Program-made: the position numbers and the translations under genes | Notes under the pieces: generated by a model | What the model was told of the DNA's origin: nothing | The model's database searches: none | The model's input: only the letters and a program-made list of their open reading frames with translations | From: Escherichia phage vB_EcoM_MM02 | DNA: 64,000 bases | Sequence record: MK373784.1 | Reading direction: 5' to 3' (one strand) | Shown: positions 638 to 10,735 of the stretch, one piece after another | How positions within the stretch are numbered: the stretch's first letter is position 1 | Layout: every line of letters begins with the position of its first letter

Positions 638-940
638 TTATTTACCTTTAATTACTTTAGCTGCTTCGATAGCCGCTTGCTGAAGGTCATCCATAGACAT
701 ACCGAATTTAGAAGCAAAGTTATCAATTTTCTTTTCGACAGCATTCAAAGGCTTGGCCTGTTTACCTTCATTAGCGCCAGGAAGAGCGAGAATACGCTCT
801 TTGTCAATATAAAGGCTTACAAGTTTCTTACGGTCTTTATCGGACAAATCATGAAATGAATGAGCCTTTTTATTTATAGCGGCTTCTAATTTACCTGCAC
901 TCACTCGCGCTTCAGTAATAAATTCTTTATATGTTTTCAT
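638..940 (-). CDS. ipII: internal protein II-like, capsid-targeted
   Basis: 100 aa; N-terminus MKTYKEFITEA matches the T4 internal-protein capsid targeting sequence; same length as T4 IPII. Confidence 0.7.
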   Translation of the reverse strand: MKTYKEFITEARVSAGKLEAAINKKAHSFHDLSDKDRKKLVSLYIDKERILALPGANEGKQAKPLNAVEKKIDNFASKFGMSMDDLQQAAIEAAKVIKGK

Positions 941-2025: not shown

Positions 2026-2510
2026 ATATACGCTTTCCAAGTTCCTGTTTTAAATGTTGAGATTACGCGTTTCGCGCGATTAGGTGTCTGACGATACCAT
2101 TTAGATTGGGCTAGATTTACTGCCGCTTCATCCCAACGTTTCTGTTGAAGCATACGAAGAGAATTAGTAAAACCGGCGACGCCTGATACACCCATTTGGA
2201 AGACCATATTGACCAATGCACACCGACGAACCGCATCTAAAGAATCATATACCGGTTTAAGTTTAGCATTACCCAAGATTCCGCGAACGGCTTTATCAAC
2301 GTCTTCATTAAATAGCTTTTCAGCCTCATCAAGGGTAATTGTACCGTTGCATTTACGTCCGATCATTCTGTCAAGTTCAGCTTTAGCTACGGCTAAAGAC
2401 GGGGTCTTTGTTACTAAATGGCCTATGCCAATAGTCCAAAAGCCTTCGGTGTCTTTGTATAAAGTCAGTCTAAGACCTTCGTCATTACGAAGCATTTCAA
2501 ATATATTCAT
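2022..2510 (-). CDS. e: lysozyme (endolysin)
   Basis: [15 protein letters not shown]...TGTWKAYI closely matches T4 lysozyme; start set at MNIFEM. Confidence 0.95.
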
Positions 2511-2538
2511 AATACCTCCCACGTTTATAGGAGGTATT
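2511..2538 (-). promoter_or_regulatory. RBS-sequestering hairpin with late-promoter-like loop upstream of e
   Basis: Perfect 9-bp inverted repeat AATACCTCC / GGAGGTATT; SD GGAGG sits in the 3' arm directly before ATG; loop has TATAAAC. Confidence 0.5.
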
Positions 2539-2544
2539 TATTAC

Positions 2545-3003
2545 TTATAGGAGTGTAGTGAGCACCTTATATAATGATTTGCCCATTACATATTCCCATT
2601 GAGAAGGTTTAATTAAAGCGAATGCATCAAATTCAGGAATCTGTCGTCCGTCCGGGAATGCATGATAGGAATTACAAACACTGTTTCTGAATTGCTCGTG
2701 CTCTACAGGGATGGTATATAGGAACAGATGAATATTCTTATTGTCTGAGTAATGATGTTCACCTAGGTCTTTCAGGAAGGCAGGGTCATATTGTGTAAAC
2801 CCAGTTTCTTCTTCGCATTCACGAATAGCGGCTTCAATAGGAGATTCGCCAGGTTCGACACGGCCTTTAGGAATATCCCACCGATGAGCTAATGCACCTT
2901 TAGGACGAGAACCAGTTACACGGCCCATGAATAACTCTTTATCTTTTGACATGAAGATAATACCGGCTGATAGCTCTTTCACTTTATTTTTCTTACTCAT
3001 CAT
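2545..3003 (-). CDS. nudE: Nudix hydrolase
   Basis: 152 aa; Nudix box GRVEPGESPIEAAIRECEEETG; position next to e as in T4 (e.1). Confidence 0.8.
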   Translation of the reverse strand: MMSKKNKVKELSAGIIFMSKDKELFMGRVTGSRPKGALAHRWDIPKGRVEPGESPIEAAIRECEEETGFTQYDPAFLKDLGEHHYSDNKNIHLFLYTIPVEHEQFRNSVCNSYHAFPDGRQIPEFDAFALIKPSQWEYVMGKSLYKVLTTLL

Positions 3004-3229
3004 CTCGGTCCCATGATTTGGCCATTAATTCGGACATAAATTCTTCAATACGCGTTTCTTTAGATGGACTTTCACTATTAGAGACCGCAAGTTTGTAATC
3101 TGCAATAGGACAGAACATATCAAGGTCCATATTAAAATCGTCTTTGATTTTTTCTTCTGACACATCTTTATCGTATGTGTACAGATAACTATCACATGAT
3201 TCTGATTTAATGTAAATTGCTATACTCAT
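2993..3229 (-). CDS. hypothetical protein
   Basis: ORF; start chosen at MSIAIYIK with SD AGGAA. Confidence 0.4.
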   Translation of the reverse strand: MSIAIYIKSESCDSYLYTYDKDVSEEKIKDDFNMDLDMFCPIADYKLAVSNSESPSKETRIEEFMSELMAKSWDRDDE

Positions 3230-3717
3230 CTCAAATTCCTGCATTCGGTAATAAAACGTTCAACTTCATTATTCTTGGCCTTTATCTTGTCTTTACGTTC
3301 CTGTAAACTACTTTTAACAAGATTAATAATGATGCCTACAGTACCGCCGCCAATGATGCCACCAACAACACTTATGATAATAGATGCTAATAAGATAGCA
3401 ATAATATCAACAAAACCGAAAGAACTCACCTTAGTACTAAAAAACCATACCGACGGTACAAATATAATCCATCCTGTTATCCATTGGCACTTATTGAAAA
3501 ACTTTTCAAGCTCAGCTTGAGTTGTTCGTATTACTTCATCGATAGGTTGATATCCATTAATGTATCTGTTCACGATAATACCTGCTGGCTGGTCGATTTT
3601 AAATTCTTGGCAAATATGTTTCACTAAGTAGGATGGACATCCTGTCCAATCTACTGAATAGTATGAAATACCTTCGTTGCCATCGTCTATATTAGACCAA
3701 TATGTTTTGTTAATCAT
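3226..3717 (-). CDS. membrane protein, C-terminal FITECR motif
   Basis: 163 aa; Gly-rich TM segments (VVGGIIGGGTVGIIINL); C-terminal ...ERFITECRNLR. Confidence 0.5.
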   Translation of the reverse strand: MINKTYWSNIDDGNEGISYYSVDWTGCPSYLVKHICQEFKIDQPAGIIVNRYINGYQPIDEVIRTTQAELEKFFNKCQWITGWIIFVPSVWFFSTKVSSFGFVDIIAILLASIIISVVGGIIGGGTVGIIINLVKSSLQERKDKIKAKNNEVERFITECRNLR

Positions 3718-4403
3718 TACCAGCCTTCCATAGGGAATTCCAGATAAACTTGAGCATTGACACGAATTTCATTGGTAATCTTTTTAACTCGGTCTGTATT
3801 ACGAGATACACGTCCGAACCAACGCCATCCGTTACTAATTGCACGAGAACCAGTGTGCCATGTTTGCCAATCAAACTGAAGAAGAGTACGATCTGGAGCT
3901 TCCCATTTCTCTAGTTCACCTTTTTCAATTTTTTCGAGGACTTCTTTGTGCCACTGGCGATAGATAAGTTCGCCATCAGGAATCTGACTGAACTCTGCAG
4001 TTCCTGTTGCAAAATGAGTAGGACACACGTCAGCGTTAACAAGACCAAGAATATGTTCAGAATGGTAACGAGGGTTGTCATAGTCAGGTTGTCCTGCAGT
4101 AATAAAGTGTTGACCAACTGGAATATCAGGGCGAGGAACATCGTCATGGTGGTATCCAGGAATAGCAGGATACCAACCAGGCATCAGCATATGAACCCGA
4201 GAATCAAATACAACATGTTGATTAGTCCAATCAATTGGGAGATTGGCAATAAAGCTACGAGTGATTGAGCCACCATTATCCCAAGCAAAACCCAAATCAC
4301 AATTAAAGAACATTGGTTCATTTTTGATTCGGTCATTTTGTACGTTATGTGCAAAACTACCAACTGCACGAGCTTGACTATTAAAAGTTTTAGAACTATT
4401 CAT
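3717..4403 (-). CDS. hypothetical protein
   Basis: 228 aa ORF with SD GAGGAAAA; His/Asp-rich stretch HHDDVPRPD; function not assigned. Confidence 0.5.
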   Translation of the reverse strand: MNSSKTFNSQARAVGSFAHNVQNDRIKNEPMFFNCDLGFAWDNGGSITRSFIANLPIDWTNQHVVFDSRVHMLMPGWYPAIPGYHHDDVPRPDIPVGQHFITAGQPDYDNPRYHSEHILGLVNADVCPTHFATGTAEFSQIPDGELIYRQWHKEVLEKIEKGELEKWEAPDRTLLQFDWQTWHTGSRAISNGWRWFGRVSRNTDRVKKITNEIRVNAQVYLEFPMEGW

Positions 4404-4404
4404 A

Positions 4405-4710
4405 TTATTTTCCTCGACATTCTTTAATGAAATTTTCTAGATTGGTAGATTCAATAGCTTTTTTACGAGCTTCTGCATGTTCTTCTTCAGACAATTTACA
4501 TTTATAATTAACCCAGACATTATGGTCGAAACTAGTCGTGGCATATAATAACAATGCTCCAACGAATAGCAAAAACGGCGATAAGAATACAAAACCAGGA
4601 ACACCATCCATACTGTAAGCCTTTTGTAATACTGCAACAGAAAGAGCTGCGTAAAAAAGTGATACAAATATTGTTAAAAGACCAATTCGGTTGGTTTCGC
4701 CTAATTTCAT
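4405..4710 (-). CDS. small membrane protein, C-terminal FIKECR motif
   Basis: 101 aa; two hydrophobic segments; C-terminal ...LENFIKECRGK. Confidence 0.5.
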   Translation of the reverse strand: MKLGETNRIGLLTIFVSLFYAALSVAVLQKAYSMDGVPGFVFLSPFLLFVGALLLYATTSFDHNVWVNYKCKLSEEEHAEARKKAIESTNLENFIKECRGK

Positions 4711-4768
4711 AATATTCTCCTCATGTTTTAATAGGACTACTATAACATAGTCCTATCAGTTTGTACAC

Positions 4769-4969
4769 TTATTTTGACATTTCTTCGATGTCACGACGAT
4801 ACCCATCACGAACTTCACGAAGAGCTTCAAGGCCACACATAGGCTCGATACCAGTAATGTGAACTTGATTAATCTGATACTCTACATCTTCTAACTGAGC
4901 GAAAACATAACGACGTTCTGCTGCACAACCAGGTTTAGCTTTACCGAAACGTTTATTCAAAGTAGTCAT
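4769..4969 (-). CDS. hypothetical protein
   Basis: Start chosen at MTTLNKRFGK with SD GGAGAT; early-type promoter upstream. Confidence 0.4.
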   Translation of the reverse strand: MTTLNKRFGKAKPGCAAERRYVFAQLEDVEYQINQVHITGIEPMCGLEALREVRDGYRRDIEEMSK

Positions 4970-5007
4970 TTTTATATCTCCATTCACTCATTTGTTTTGA
5001 TAGGTCT

Positions 5008-5037
5008 ATAGTATCAACAACTACAGACCTTGTAAAC
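5008..5037 (-). promoter_or_regulatory. early-type promoter GTTTAC-N18-TACTAT
   Basis: Minus strand GTTTACAAGGTCTGTAGTTGTTGATACTAT; near-palindrome AGGTCTATAGT/ACTACAGACCT overlaps the -10. Confidence 0.45.
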
Positions 5038-5049
5038 TGTTTTGCGAAA

Positions 5050-6006
5050 TTATTTGAAAGGTTTTACCATATGGAAATTTTGTTTGAAACGTTTGACGTA
5101 ATCGTCGTGTCCTAAGCTTTGGTACATACTTACTACTTTGCTATAATTTTCCCAAGCGAACTCACGGAACCATCCTGATGTGATTGATGTACAGACCTTT
5201 TCAAGGGCCATCATAAAACTATCACGTGGATGGATTTTAAAGTCGTTAGGAATCTGTGAACGTTCAAGAGCTAATACACAAGCTTCTTCATATACACCGG
5301 CTAATTTAACCATTTCTGGGAATGATTCGAACTTCTCGCGCGATGTCATAACTTCTGAGCCTTCTTTCATATAAAACTTATAAGCAGGCTGGTCAGTTAG
5401 TGCAATGGCTTCATGGATAGTATCATGGTCATACGTATAGATGTCATCTTTAAAGAACGCACTTTTAGAAGTGTCAAGAACTGGGTGAGCATAATTCAAG
5501 GTTTCTTTCTGGCGTTTCAGCATAATTTCAGTAAGTTCATCGTTCAGTGTAACACCTTTACCACGAAGATACTGAATATGGTTCATAGTCTTTAAAAAGA
5601 ATGGATTATTTTTCTTGAAACGATGAGACATCTTAATTGCAAGACATATCTCAGGAGTTGCCCAGTAAAACCCGTTCAAACGGTCTTTAGTCAAATTTTT
5701 CTTGGCGTATTTTAAAAGGTCATAAGAAGACGTGAAATCTTCAGGAGTGAGTTCACCGACTAGTTCGCGAACGTTAGTGATAGCCGGAACGATGTATGCT
5801 TCAAAATGAGTTTCGCGTCCATTATGGAAGCATTTGAAAACTTGGACATCAGGGTTATCTTGGTGAACATATACACCCATCATTTGATTTTTGAATGCAT
5901 TCCAAGAACCTTGGTCCGCAATAAAGTCCCAATCACTATTTTTAATAGCGCTAGAATCAATAAGACCGTGATAGTGAAGTGCACGAGAACCAATAACTAA
6001 CATCAT
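5050..6006 (-). CDS. hypothetical protein, possible pol-beta-type nucleotidyltransferase fold
   Basis: 318 aa; N-terminal IGSRALHYHG...(17 aa)...DWDF resembles the GS...DxD nucleotidyltransferase signature; weak. Confidence 0.45.
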   Translation of the reverse strand: MMLVIGSRALHYHGLIDSSAIKNSDWDFIADQGSWNAFKNQMMGVYVHQDNPDVQVFKCFHNGRETHFEAYIVPAITNVRELVGELTPEDFTSSYDLLKYAKKNLTKDRLNGFYWATPEICLAIKMSHRFKKNNPFFLKTMNHIQYLRGKGVTLNDELTEIMLKRQKETLNYAHPVLDTSKSAFFKDDIYTYDHDTIHEAIALTDQPAYKFYMKEGSEVMTSREKFESFPEMVKLAGVYEEACVLALERSQIPNDFKIHPRDSFMMALEKVCTSITSGWFREFAWENYSKVVSMYQSLGHDDYVKRFKQNFHMVKPFK

Positions 6007-6034
6007 AATATTTTCCTCGGATTAATTCATTAAC

Positions 6035-6286
6035 TTAAATTTCACGACATGCGATATTATATTCATCCCAGAGGTCATCATGTGAAGCCTCTACCAATGG
6101 AACGATTGTACCGTTTATGTCTTCATTATAAGGGCAAATTGTACAGTGCGCATCTTCGAATCGGATGCCTTTGTGTTCAGATTTTTTATAACGCATATCG
6201 AATATCTTTGCAAACTTTTCACGAGTAATGGTTTTACCAACCACTTTGGTTCCTATACTTTCGTAATAAATCATTGTGGACTCCAT
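6035..6286 (-). CDS. hypothetical protein
   Basis: 83 aa ORF; HCTICPYNED Cys/His pair; C-terminus ...NIACREI. Confidence 0.4.
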   Translation of the reverse strand: MESTMIYYESIGTKVVGKTITREKFAKIFDMRYKKSEHKGIRFEDAHCTICPYNEDINGTIVPLVEASHDDLWDEYNIACREI

Positions 6287-6302
6287 TTGTTTTGATAGGA
6301 CT

Positions 6303-6332
6303 ACTATAACATAGCCCTATCTTGTTGTAAAC
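6303..6332 (-). promoter_or_regulatory. early-type promoter GTTTAC-N18-TGtTATAGT
   Basis: Minus strand GTTTACAACAAGATAGGGCTATGTTATAGT; imperfect palindrome ATAGGACTA-N8-TAGCCCTAT overlaps the -10. Confidence 0.45.
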
Positions 6333-6336
6333 TGTT

Positions 6337-6534
6337 TTAGCAAGAATAACTAGATGATACCCAGCCTTGAACAGTGATACTATTGTGGGATAATGAGATC
6401 GCGTCCTGGAGATTCAGACCTGCGTTATCTTCAATCCATAATGTAACTTCTTCGCGTTCTTCTGTTGCAATTTGGAACAGGTTTTCCAGAGCAGCTACTG
6501 CCGTACGTACAGCACAATCTAATTCACGAGACAT
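6337..6534 (-). CDS. small protein, GWVxSSxxC C-terminal family
   Basis: 65 aa; C-terminus ...QGWVSSSYSC-stop. Confidence 0.45.
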   Translation of the reverse strand: MSRELDCAVRTAVAALENLFQIATEEREEVTLWIEDNAGLNLQDAISLSHNSITVQGWVSSSYSC

Positions 6535-6543
6535 ATTGTTTCC

Positions 6544-6816
6544 TTAGCAAGTGTGAGAAGATGCGACCCAACCACCGGTTTCGAGGCTCAGGTTGTAGTC
6601 GTATTGGTAAACGTCAGCCCATTCAGCATAGCCGTTTTTTGTACAACGTTCAAGATCGGCTTTAAGATGTCCGGGTGAATGATAGGTTCCACCCATACCA
6701 TAAGCTGGGTACAAGTTGAACGTTGTGTTTTGTTTATCAGCAATTTCTTTGGCAGCCTCAATAGCTGCATAGATTTTTGCTACAGCTTCAGCCAGTTCGG
6801 TTTGTTCTTTAGACAT
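6544..6816 (-). CDS. small protein, GWVxSSxxC C-terminal family
   Basis: 90 aa; N-terminal helix similar to next gene; C-terminus ...GGWVASSHTC-stop. Confidence 0.5.
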   Translation of the reverse strand: MSKEQTELAEAVAKIYAAIEAAKEIADKQNTTFNLYPAYGMGGTYHSPGHLKADLERCTKNGYAEWADVYQYDYNLSLETGGWVASSHTC

Positions 6817-6825
6817 AATGATTCC

Positions 6826-7131
6826 TTAGCACAACGCAGAAGACGAAACCCAAGCACCTTCAGTAATAACGTAACCATTACCTTCACGCTTAACATCGCC
6901 ACCATTATTTTCAATTTCATCTTTCATCCACTGGGATACGATTTCACCCTTAGGATAATAAGTACGACCGCTACCATAATCACCTACAGAAAATGATACG
7001 GCATATTGGTCTGCGATCTTTGTTGCTTCTTCTTCGATACGTTCAGCTTGATTCAGAAGTTTATAAATTGCATCTGAAGCGGATTTGGCATCATTAAACT
7101 CTGGTACTTTAATTTCAATAATCTTACTCAT
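6826..7131 (-). CDS. small protein, GWVxSSxxC C-terminal family
   Basis: 101 aa; C-terminus ...GAWVSSSALC-stop; stop overlaps SD of next gene. Confidence 0.5.
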   Translation of the reverse strand: MSKIIEIKVPEFNDAKSASDAIYKLLNQAERIEEEATKIADQYAVSFSVGDYGSGRTYYPKGEIVSQWMKDEIENNGGDVKREGNGYVITEGAWVSSSALC

Positions 7132-7487
7132 TTTCTACATTCCTTAATAAAGTTTTCGATTGTTTCATTTTCACGTCTAGCTAGGAGTTCATTATAACTA
7201 ATCATTTGAGAAGCGTAAACCTTTTTATTTTTCTTGTTGTGGTTTATAAAATCGTAGTAAAAATAGACTATAGTACAAAATGATGCGATGGATGCAAAGG
7301 CTTGGGTATACCGTAAGTCCTGCCATTGGTCTGTGAATCCACCAGTGTTCCCTATAAATCCTAACACAACGCCGTCAATAAGAAATCCAACTAATCCAAA
7401 GGCAAATCCCATGCCAATACTCATAATAAAAATTAGAATGTTCTCACCAAGAGAAGGCCATACGGTTAAGAGTTGAGGCTTTTGCAT
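7128..7487 (-). CDS. membrane protein, C-terminal FIKECR motif
   Basis: 119 aa; hydrophobic segments; C-terminal ...ENFIKECRK. Confidence 0.5.
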   Translation of the reverse strand: MQKPQLLTVWPSLGENILIFIMSIGMGFAFGLVGFLIDGVVLGFIGNTGGFTDQWQDLRYTQAFASIASFCTIVYFYYDFINHNKKNKKVYASQMISYNELLARRENETIENFIKECRK

Positions 7488-7891
7488 CTTATTTCCTTAA
7501 CGAATTCCATAGCTTCTTCATATTCATACTTTTTAACAGCTTCATCATACTGAGCTTGGGCTTTTGCGCACTGAACTCTCCATTCTCTTAATCGGGCTCT
7601 GTGATGACGGCCTTGGTGCCAATATCCTACCCAATTAATAGGCATTAATAAAAACGGTACAATAAGTGGTGCGACGAACATTAATGAAAATGCTGCATCA
7701 GACGATATAACTTCACTAGAATCTAAAACAGCTCCTATAATCATAAAGATTAAAAATGCTAAAGCTAAAATAGGGCCAAATAGTACTTCATTTGGGATTA
7801 ATTTACGCTTGTATTCATACGCCCAGGGCTTACTTGGCATGTATAGGGTTGGCTTTGACATATTCTCTACATTCCATAATAAATTGCTCAA
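7466..7891 (-). CDS. membrane protein
   Basis: 141 aa ORF (start uncertain, overlaps upstream gene); two hydrophobic segments; C-terminal ...EFVKEIRCKSLNS. Confidence 0.45.
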   Translation of the reverse strand: MSNLLWNVENMSKPTLYMPSKPWAYEYKRKLIPNEVLFGPILALAFLIFMIIGAVLDSSEVISSDAAFSLMFVAPLIVPFLLMPINWVGYWHQGRHHRARLREWRVQCAKAQAQYDEAVKKYEYEEAMEFVKEIRCKSLNS

Positions 7892-8432
7892 GGATTAAAT
7901 TGTTAGTGAAATTAGGACTAACAACCATAGTTTCATAAAGCGCATCAATAGCACTTAAAGCATCAACTCTTTTAAGCAAAGGCTTGCCTTCATACATAGT
8001 TTCAGAATCGATGATTAACGTAAAGTAATATTTTTTATTATCGACTAGAACTTCTGTATCGATATAAAACATATTAGACCTCAGAAGCTTATCTCTAAAA
8101 CCATAATAATCTTCAGAGCGTTCGCTGATATATTCCCATTCAGTGTTTAAACAACAAACAGACCATGTAGGAGCAACGAAATCAGTGAATCTAATATCAT
8201 GGTCTGCAACTAGTTTAGCAATAGCTCCGATATCATGAATCATAATACCTGGGGCTAATAAAGATTTTCTGCTATGGCTAGCCGTTTTCTCGGTGGTCTC
8301 ATAAGAAGACGACCAGTACCATTTACGTCCGGTTGCAACATATCGTAATGAATCAACTAAAGACGTAGGTGGATTTACCTTATCTCGGAACTCTTCGAAC
8401 ATTGAGTCAATATCATTATTTTGGTTTCGCAT
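7830..8432 (-). CDS. hypothetical protein
   Basis: Start chosen at MRNQNND with SD AAGGAG; C-terminal region ...EQFIMECREY... Confidence 0.5.
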   Translation of the reverse strand: MRNQNNDIDSMFEEFRDKVNPPTSLVDSLRYVATGRKWYWSSSYETTEKTASHSRKSLLAPGIMIHDIGAIAKLVADHDIRFTDFVAPTWSVCCLNTEWEYISERSEDYYGFRDKLLRSNMFYIDTEVLVDNKKYYFTLIIDSETMYEGKPLLKRVDALSAIDALYETMVVSPNFTNNLILEQFIMECREYVKANPIHAK

Positions 8433-8450
8433 GTTAACTCCTTTATTATC

Positions 8451-8473
8451 CAAAAGGAGGACCGGAGTCCTCC
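8451..8473 (-). terminator. intrinsic terminator-like hairpin
   Basis: GGAGGAC-CGGA-GTCCTCC 7-bp stem followed by T-run on minus strand. Confidence 0.45.
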
Positions 8474-8481
8474 GTATTATT

Positions 8482-9090
8482 TTATTTCAAAGAGTTAATA
8501 TATTCTTGTACATCAGCAGAAGTGGTTTCGACGCCGGCTGGAGTGCCATTGAACGTTTCAACACGAGTCAGAGTGTCTTCGATATCAACCTTAGTCAGTG
8601 CAGCTATTTCAATTACATCATCGGCCGTAGAGATACCAAGGGCATTGGCTGCTCGAGTTTCACGAATGTATTCGAGTTTGATTGCCAGGTTCTGACGAGC
8701 ATCGTCAAGTTCAACCACCTTACGAGCAATTTCAATTCGCATAGCGGCGTACCCGTCAGCTTTTGTATTAAGTTGTTCGGCAGTTCGACGATACAGAAGA
8801 CCAAGCTTAGCATGCATAGTAACATCTTGTCCTTCAGCCAGGAGCTTACGAATTTCACGTTCCTTAGAAGCGGCTTGCTTGTTCTTTTCATTAACAAGTT
8901 CGCGAATACGTTTTTCTTCATTAATAGATTTAACAGAAGCCGTTTTTAGTTCTTTGATTTGGGTAATCAACTTATCTGCAGCTGCGTTATACTGTTCTTC
9001 GACAGTCAGATTTTTAGCCATAGCAGTATCCAGTTTAGTGCGAATGAATTCAACAAGTTTCTTCAGTGTGTTCATATTATTACCTTTCAA
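8482..9090 (-). CDS. coiled-coil protein, unknown function
   Basis: 202 aa; heptad-like charged/hydrophobic periodicity throughout. Confidence 0.45.
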
Positions 9091-9145
9091 TTGGTGGTTT
9101 ATTATCCAACGAGAGCATTATACTCTGCTCTCAAGAGTTTGTAAA

Positions 9146-9373
9146 TTATTTTTTAATCAAATTGACATAAAACTTGGCGTCTTCGGGGTGCATGCCTTCG
9201 CAGTATTCTTCAACCATGAACTTCTTAACAGCTTCATAAGGACCACTCAGATTAAGCTCAGTTGTCCAGAACTTGGAATCTTGGACTGAATCGATACGAA
9301 CTTCAGGGTGGCGGTTGCGAATAACTTCTTCTGTGTATTCATAATCAACGACATCAATACTAACTTTAGCCAT
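9146..9373 (-). CDS. hypothetical protein
   Basis: 75 aa ORF; SD AAGAGGAAAA; early-type promoter upstream. Confidence 0.45.
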   Translation of the reverse strand: MAKVSIDVVDYEYTEEVIRNRHPEVRIDSVQDSKFWTTELNLSGPYEAVKKFMVEEYCEGMHPEDAKFYVNLIKK

Positions 9374-10270: not shown

Positions 10271-10735
10271 TTATTTAATTTGTTTAGCAGACCAGATACG
10301 GTCTTTAATAAGTTTTTGGATATCTTCAACATACTCAAGGCTATGAGCGTGAGGATTATCTTTGAAGCTATGTGCTCGTGCCAGTTTCTGGCCTTCTGTT
10401 TTGATTACTAAAAGCTCTTTAAGAATTGCTTCATACTTAGAAATAATTCCTTTGGCGATATTTTTTTCTTGAGCTGCTTTAGGGTCTGTTTTTGGCGCAG
10501 GTGCTTTACCTGTAGCTTTCTGGAACAATTCACCTGATGCAGCTAGGCTTTTAAAAACTCGGCTAACAGTATTAGCATTAGTAAAACCTTCGGCTTTAAA
10601 ATCTCTAATAAAACGGAAACGTTCTTCATCAGAGGCGTCTTTGTAAGAATATTTACCTGCTTGAATTGCTGCAATCGCAGCGGCTTTTACATCTGAACTA
10701 GATTGTTCAGTCAAAAATTCAGCGTATGATTTCAT
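10271..10735 (-). CDS. internal protein-like, capsid targeting sequence
   Basis: 154 aa; N-terminus MKSYAEFLTE fits the CTS pattern; SD AGGAAAAG. Confidence 0.55.
   Translation of the reverse strand: MKSYAEFLTEQSSSDVKAAAIAAIQAGKYSYKDASDEERFRFIRDFKAEGFTNANTVSRVFKSLAASGELFQKATGKAPAPKTDPKAAQEKNIAKGIISKYEAILKELLVIKTEGQKLARAHSFKDNPHAHSLEYVEDIQKLIKDRIWSAKQIK

Follow-up and report, generated by a model that had tools for sequence, protein, structure and literature searches.

A recurrent C-terminal tail on dissimilar proteins of the nudE-e.6 gene cluster of T4-like phages

The window analyzed here, a stretch of 64,000 nucleotides from Escherichia phage vB_EcoM_MM02 (MK373784.1), contains a cluster of small genes between nudE and e.6, in which proteins with different bodies repeatedly carry the same short peptide, with the core [F/W]-[I/V]-x-x-C-R, at or near their C-termini. 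This motif is real, is selected at the protein level, is specific to the cluster, occurs on unrelated bodies and is predicted to be helical. Judged from sequence, the tail most likely marks its carriers as parts of one module, and a shared targeting or partner-binding function, as proposed in a first-pass annotation of the window, is plausible. As far as we could find, the motif has apparently not been described: no mention of it or of e.2-e.6 was found in the literature searched, the 2003 T4 genome review lying outside the scope of that search.

The strict form of the tail noted in the first-pass annotation, E-x-F-I-x-E-C-R, is found in four genes of the window, all of which, like the remaining carrier, lie on the minus strand. 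Gene A (3226-3717) ends in VERFITECRNLR (motif codons 3238-3255), gene B (4405-4710) in LENFIKECRGK (4414-4431) and gene C (7128-7487) in IENFIKECRK (7134-7151); gene D (7830-8432), which ends in LEQFIMECREYVKANPIHAK, carries the motif as LEQFIMECREYVKA (7866-7883), 11 residues ahead of the stop codon. The coordinates and strand of all four were verified. A six-frame translation of the window contains four matches to E.F[IV].ECR, compared with none in 200 shuffles, and each of the four lies in the frame of a real gene, at 1, 2, 3 or 11 residues from the stop. Similarly, the looser pattern [FW][IV]..CR occurs four times within 12 residues of the stop of long open reading frames (ORFs), against a shuffle mean of 0.04. 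The fifth gene, E (7466-7861, with its ATG at 7861), ends in MEFVKEIRCKSLNS (7487-7504), where the core Cys is replaced by Ile and the next Arg-Cys codons (AG ATG C) hold the start codon of gene C. The true starts of D and E, as indicated by PHROG matches, are 8432 and 7861, and the final 32 nt of D overlap the start of E. The weaker variant of the tail that had been suspected in E is a true degenerate copy, and the cytoplasmic region of this protein aligns with that of gene C over 41 columns. A second suspected variant, the product of a small minus-strand gene at 6035-6286 that ends in NIACREI, was discarded; it lacks both F-[IV] and a membrane segment, and the Kanagawavirus Q7622 homologue ends in YCYEI.

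Gene A is an intact homologue of T4 e.2. It matches phrog_2203 over residues 1-161 (E 3e-55), has the N-terminal W..LDD...G......DW..C domain of the family, and lies upstream of nudE and e, the same as in T4; the e.2 representatives that were looked up carry a precomputed assignment to PF26896 (Phage_T4_Y06M). Gene B, which encodes a protein of 101 aa (phrog_9798), aligns with positions 79-165 of phrog_2203 (E 1.2e-4) and is thus a paralogue of the e.2 family in its C-terminal half. Genes C, E and D are the homologues of T4 e.3, e.4 and e.5, respectively, as indicated by similarity (36, 52 and 47% identity to the T4 proteins in alignments), by the gene order e.6-e.5-e.4-e.3 and by matches to PHROGs 2330, 2604 and 2607. 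In the ATK47 annotation, moreover, T4 accessions are cited for e.3 and e.4 and for the next two genes upstream, the counterparts of e.5 and e.6 of T4. The e.5 protein of the window (200 aa) carries a precomputed assignment to PF26876. No function is assigned to the Pfam and PHROG families in which the carriers fall (PF26896 and PF26876; phrogs 2203, 9798, 2330, 2604 and 2607), and searches against Pfam, NCBIfam and PADLOC returned nothing meaningful for any of them.

The first-pass annotation had described the carriers as membrane proteins. With one or more hydrophobic stretches of about 19 residues as the criterion, a test of hydropathy only, this description is predicted to hold for A, B, e.3 and e.4, whose Kyte-Doolittle 19-residue maxima are 2.3-2.8, but not for e.5, a predicted soluble protein in which no such stretch is present (maximum 1.56; the product of 6035-6286 reaches 0.38). 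Two membrane helices are predicted in B and in e.4 (131 aa), and e.3 is likewise predicted to be a small membrane protein. The product of A consists of a soluble N-terminal domain followed by two predicted membrane helices and the tail.

The residues of the tail are constant while its codons are not. Among 24 tails of five lineages (those of the window, T4, two further Tequatroviruses, Dhakavirus IME08 and Kanagawavirus Q7622), the codons used are AGA, AGG, CGA, CGC or CGT for Arg, TGT or TGC for Cys, and TTT or TTC for Phe; the four strict tails of the window already use AGG, CGA, AGA and AGA for Arg and both codons each for Cys and Phe. Since Arg is specified by five codons and Cys by two, selection acts on the protein, as the first-pass annotation had supposed. 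The consensus of 22 tails, numbered from the aromatic residue, is [LF](-3)-[END]-x-[FW](0)-[IV]-K-[EG]-C(+4)-R-[KN]; 21 of them have L, F, V, I or M at -3. What stays invariant from genus to genus is the core [F/W]-[I/V]-x-x-C-R, together with a hydrophobic residue at -3. Many family members have Gly, Met, Gln or Arg in place of Glu at +3; because the cross-genus consensus varies there, the Glu pair of E-x-F-I-x-E-C-R, although present in the four genes of the window, is a lineage-specific feature that lies outside the core and does not define the motif.

An exhaustive HMMER search with the product of A against 1.84 billion representatives yielded 14 proteins at E <=0.001. Ten of these are full-length members of the e.2 family that are 26-36% identical to A and align with it end to end, and all ten terminate in [FW]-I-x-x-C-R plus 1-4 residues. 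In an alignment of 12 e.2 sequences (25-31% identity), eight columns are invariant (I2, W7, D11, G16, W24, I156, C159 and R160), and the tail hexamer is the best conserved of the 158 six-residue windows. In the e.5 family (seven sequences, 20-47% identity), F184, C188, R189 and K193 account for four of the eight invariant columns. The tail is the best-conserved stretch of both families.

The motif at gene ends is confined to the nudE-to-e.6 cluster, as examined in T4 and a Mosigvirus. In the whole T4 genome, real-frame matches to the core occur only in e.5 (tail EKFVKECREYVKAITIPSK), in e.3 (KEFVIDCRKIK) and in the remnant of e.2, whose orphaned end NNFITECRKLK (67484-67501) survives as the end of an unannotated ORF. 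In the remaining 98 kb of Mosigvirus mobillu, no gene-end match was found, even with a looser pattern. A scan of IMG/VR DNA for F-I-K-x-C-R-K-stop gave 56 matches, which is about the chance expectation, and the four of these that end an ORF of at least 60 aa are all e.2 or e.3 genes of T4-like phages. A search for related loci in IMG/VR identified few T4-like loci, and near-identical proteins were all that word-indexed searches returned for e.3, for e.5 and for the alignment of 22 tails. The first-pass annotation had called the carriers dispersed, but the genes all lie within 5 kb; the tail belongs to this single cluster and is not a tag of the whole proteome. As to the T4 remnant itself, the annotated e.2 of T4 (NC_000866; 102 aa, 67484-67960) is a frameshifted gene, which differs from its intact orthologue by a 1-nt deletion followed 77 nt later by a 1-nt insertion; in other Tequatroviruses the gene is intact and encodes 162 aa (for example, L007 9302-9790).

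Outside the tail, the carriers have little in common. When the profiles of e.3/e.4 were compared with those of the C-terminal half of e.2, B and Q7622 gp135 (hhalign), only the last 19 columns aligned (E 9e-8); e.5 aligned with e.2C/B over 14 columns (E 1e-4) and with e.3 over 16 (E 2e-3). The bodies comprise an N-terminal domain with two membrane helices (e.2), two-helix mini-proteins (e.3, e.4 and B) and soluble proteins. The last group includes, besides e.5, two further types that are encoded in the same cluster of other genera: gp142-like proteins (gp142 of Q7622 and L073 6685-6981, ending in SFIQMCRGNQNVS and TFIKMCRGNQNVT) and orf118-like proteins (orf118 of IME08 and L073 7143-7523, with the tails LFLEYCRSDVQL at the stop and LFSQWCRQR ahead of it).

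The tail is predicted to be an amphipathic helix. The AlphaFold2 model of A, based on an alignment of 12 sequences, has a mean pLDDT of 74.6 and combines a small N-terminal domain with two long helices, of which the second (residues 102-162, pLDDT about 76-81) runs from the membrane segment through the tail; a Foldseek search of BFVD with this model detected uncharacterised orthologues only. The tails have a hydrophobic moment of 0.5-0.8 and a negative mean hydrophobicity, and their hydrophobic residues fall at -3, 0, +1 and +4. This narrow stripe is of the type that packs one helix against another, unlike that of a helix inserting in a membrane. In the membrane carriers, 8-11 Lys and Arg residues follow the last membrane helix in each C-terminal segment, so that, by the positive-inside rule, the tails would face the cytoplasm.

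These features suggest the following model. A short amphipathic alpha-helix would be placed at or near the ends of at least five dissimilar families of early proteins encoded by the nudE-e.6 cluster of enterobacterial T4-like phages. In e.2, B, e.3 and e.4, this helix would extend the last membrane helix into the cytoplasm, past the Lys/Arg-rich stretch, and in e.5 and the gp142-like and orf118-like proteins it would terminate a soluble protein. The hydrophobic stripe, made up of positions -3, 0 and +1 and of the invariant Cys (+4) next to the equally invariant Arg, may constitute a surface for helix-helix docking, through which the products of the cluster could bind each other or one common partner at the inner membrane face, and soluble carriers would thereby be brought to the membrane-anchored ones. 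Copies have spread partly by tandem duplication and probably also by recombination at gene junctions. We consider the proposition that the tail is a shared docking or oligomerisation helix, which ties the products of the cluster together or to a common partner, to be the best supported of those weighed here, though evenly balanced. It is more speculative, and less likely than not, that such a docking tag assembles membrane and soluble carriers into an unrecognised early complex or on one hub of host or phage origin, that Cys-Arg forms an intermolecular thiol, metal or modification site, and that the repeats at the junctions allow subunits to be added, swapped or dropped with the tag and the next start codon left intact.

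Several observations weigh against a docking helix common to all carriers. The AlphaFold2 model of e.5 is unusable (pLDDT 37, from an alignment of near-identical sequences only), and the cytoplasmic topology suggested above is a prediction from hydropathy and from the positive-inside rule only. Not all carriers keep the core Cys: e.4 has Ile or Ser at this position, and the e.3-like genes have Val in Q7622 and L081 and Leu in L073. The motif is therefore not required in every carrier. Moreover, carriers are lost singly, as e.2 is frameshifted in T4 and deleted in the Tequatrovirus genome L010. Finally, overlap with Shine-Dalgarno sequences (AAG GAA; AGG AAx or CGA GGA) inflates the apparent conservation of the tail at +2, +3 and +6. 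This double duty explains some of the preference at those three positions, but cannot account for the invariant F/W, I/V, C and R.

The alternative that survives best is that of a family resemblance, in which tandem duplication and recombination at the junctions have derived all carriers from a single small membrane protein, and the tail has been kept for its role in internal structure, anchoring the topology or stabilising the last membrane helix, with no common partner. We regard this as rather unlikely as an account of the whole, even though duplication has evidently left traces in the cluster. Gene B resembles the C-terminal half of the e.2 family. Q7622 gp135 resembles A in the string DKIKAK and in a Gly-rich membrane helix, and its tail (FVKGCRNGR) is identical to that of gp136, which has a similar Gly-rich helix. 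The e.3 and e.4 genes are adjacent, their products have the same architecture and a common N-terminus (M-x-K-P-x-L), and their cytoplasmic parts align over the 41 columns mentioned above (E 1e-4, probability 58%); furthermore, Dhakavirus IME08 and Kanagawavirus Q7622 contain one gene at the place where T4 and the window have two. In the metagenomic contig L081 (Logan SRR8048112), four consecutive small membrane proteins encoded upstream of nudE (56-1634) each bear the tail or one of its variants (NFVKECRGQ, QFIREVRNAKTR, KFIDDCKNWR and NFIKMCRNS, each at the stop). On the other hand, the tail also occurs on the unrelated soluble bodies of e.5 and the gp142-like and orf118-like proteins, the similarity between families ends at the tail, and the most conserved part is the tail rather than the body. 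In soluble proteins a role in membrane topology makes no sense, and this alternative does not explain why they carry the tail. Thus, the contention of the first-pass annotation that the tail is a tag rather than the product of gene duplication stands insofar as the bodies differ and the similarity is limited to the last 14-19 residues, but some of the copies (e.3/e.4; e.2/B/gp135) are accounted for by tandem duplication, which explains part of the recurrence.

It is much less probable that the conserved entity is a DNA or RNA element, either the translation initiation region of the next gene or a recombination linker for swapping cassettes, with the peptide as a by-product. The junctions do have a striking layout, in that the Shine-Dalgarno sequence and ATG of the next gene lie inside, or at most 16 nt past, the Cys-Arg codons in every case: K-E is encoded as AAG GAA ahead of the starts of 6826-7131, e.3 and e.4, R-G as CGA GGA ahead of 3717-4403, and C-R-N as TGC AGG AAT ahead of 2993-3244. 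A junction of the form ECRxL[KR]-stop/MQE[IF]xM precedes nudE in T4 and the ORF130c-like gene in the window. The junctions can also recombine: in L010, a complete Tequatrovirus genome (IMGVR_UViG_2974787500_000001), a natural 485-bp deletion at about 9240-9340 has removed all of e.2 through a crossover within the 9-nt repeat TGCAGGAAA, which is common to the tails of e.3 and e.2, and e.3 now ends in EFVIDCRKLK directly before the intact start region of nudE. However, variation in the tail codons is concentrated at synonymous sites, and Arg is drawn from both of its codon families with F/W, I/V, C and R fixed. The next ATG lies anywhere from 8 to >30 nt beyond the Cys codon, with the Shine-Dalgarno sequence falling on differing motif positions, and tight junctions with overlapping starts are usual throughout T4. 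The tail of e.2 is retained before quite different downstream genes, namely nudE (T4 and L074), an ORF130c-like gene (window), gp135 (Q7622) and an 80-aa ORF (L072). A nucleotide-level explanation fails for the core because ATG spacing, Shine-Dalgarno position and downstream genes all vary. It is likely that recombination at the junctions nevertheless helps to spread copies of the tail, because its codons also carry the ribosome-binding site or the start codon of the next gene, and L010 shows in a natural case that T4-like phages can lose a gene cleanly through coding repeats at the junctions.

Least probable of all, and to our minds highly improbable, is that the tail is a C-terminal version of the T4 capsid targeting sequence (MKTYQEFIAEA...) or a prohead protease site ([L/I]-x-E) that directs the carriers to the prohead. 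Prohead assembly starts at the membrane in T4, and the starts of internal-protein genes in the window include MKSYAEFLTEQS; the string EFITEAR resembles the RFITECR and EFVKEIR of the tails. This likeness to the N-termini of the internal proteins (MKTYKEFITEAR) is a superficial one, as the two motifs differ in their invariant residues: the targeting sequence is without Cys-Arg and the tail is variable at its Glu +3. Moreover, the targeting sequence is N-terminal while the tails are C-terminal and have no M-K-x-Y, none of them matches M-K-x-Y-x-E-F-[IL]-x-E, and the carriers are, by prediction, small integral membrane proteins that are early, judging from their T4 homologues. As for signals acting through the end of the protein, a nascent-peptide stalling or termination signal was rejected, since Cys-Arg lies anywhere from 1 to 13 residues ahead of the stop, and a C-terminal degron is unlikely in view of the variable position and basic ends.

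Four minus-strand genes of the window (638-940, 1005-1265, 1744-2040 and 10271-10735) start with M-K-x-Y-x-E-F-[IL]-x-E, an N-terminus like the capsid targeting sequence that marks internal head proteins, and they flank the e cluster on both sides.

The window comes from a Mosigvirus, an RB69-like T4-type phage; its region 2500-9200 is 97-99% identical to phages of this genus, and the gene order given here follows the annotation of close relatives and T4. All the genes described lie on the minus strand. Upstream of e.5 is e.6 (8482-9075), preceded by a near-consensus sigma-70-type promoter (TTTACA-17-TATAAT, 9117-9145, minus strand) and separated from e.5 by a terminator-like GC-rich hairpin with a T run (8456-8473, minus strand), both of which are annotated likewise in relatives. 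Between e.3 and the small gene at 6035-6286 lie three small paralogues (6826-7131, 6544-6816 and 6337-6534). They are followed beyond 6035-6286 by a gene for a DUF7275/DUF7277 protein (5050-6006), by 4769-4987, which lies between that gene and B, by 3717-4403 between B and A, and, after A, by the ORF130c-like gene 2993-3244, nudE (2545-3003) and then the lysozyme gene e. The three paralogues form a tandem trio of soluble proteins that all end in W-[VI]-[SA]-S-S-x-x-C (GWVSSSYSC, GGWVASSHTC and GAWVSSSALC at 6337-6534, 6544-6816 and 6826-7131, respectively), which is a second, distinct recurrent C-terminal motif in the cluster; this family has also multiplied in Q7622 (gp141 and gp143-146), IME08 (orf120 and orf123) and L073. 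The ORF start at 3244 of 2993-3244 (MQEFEM...) and the nudE start of T4 at 67490 (MQEIKM...) both place the ATG within the Glu-Cys codons of the upstream tail (GA ATG C). In the case of 2993-3244, the second ATG (3229, after AGGAA) is the likelier start, because the PHROG match begins at residue 6.

Two functional assignments for individual proteins of the cluster were considered and rejected. The e.6 protein, which is 61-88% identical across genera, compared with 20-47% for e.2 and e.5, has no match in Pfam, NCBIfam or PDB, and the idea that it is a hub of the PspA/IM30/Vipp1 type was dropped, as Vipp1/sll0617 reached only E 2-4, over long alignments, in a profile search of PDB sequences and E. 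coli PspA a probability of 0.3% (hhalign). The e.4 protein is named as a rhodanese-type sulfurtransferase in some GenBank records (e.g., JK42 QEG06254.1). A rhodanese domain comprises about 100 aa with the active-site loop C-x-x-x-x-R. No such match was found in Pfam or NCBIfam. The e.4 protein has two membrane helices in its 131 aa and no detectable domain of the rhodanese or any other type; the name looks spurious.

About half of the T4 genes, among them those of the e.2-e.8 block, are without known function. A strongly selected tail shared by products of this block links at least five orphan families into one testable unit, which in the docking view predicts that soluble e.5 is recruited to membrane carriers or that one partner is common to all carriers. 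On present evidence we would not call this a new kind of system; we regard it as a useful handle on an orphan block of T4-type genes. PF26896, PF26876 and PHROGs 2203, 9798, 2330, 2604 and 2607 stand as separate families, and the shared tail is absent from the annotation examined.

The tail may be compared with several known systems. Like the amphipathic helices of MinD and FtsA, it would be a C-terminal helix at the cytoplasmic face; by contrast, with its negative mean hydrophobicity and narrow stripe it is too polar to insert in the membrane. As PspB and PspC do for PspA, small two-helix membrane proteins could recruit a soluble protein, although the neighbouring e.6 has no significant similarity to PspA or Vipp1. 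The targeting sequence of T4 IPI, IPII and IPIII is likewise a short peptide, F-[IL]-x-E, on unrelated small proteins of the same variable region, but it is N-terminal, is cleaved by gp21 and reads M-K-x-Y-x-E-F-[IL]-x-E, whereas the present tail is C-terminal and reads [FW]-[IV]-x-x-C-R. The closest working model is offered by the sliding clamp of T4: gp43, gp33, gp55 and RNase H bind gp45 through C-terminal tails that are hydrophobic and acidic (Leu/Phe-rich). Those tails are without Cys-Arg and belong to DNA and transcription proteins, whereas the present tail is found on membrane and soluble proteins of one variable cluster; in both cases, however, a similar short C-terminal peptide is carried by unrelated proteins of one phage, and by this analogy the present tail may also dock on a common hub.

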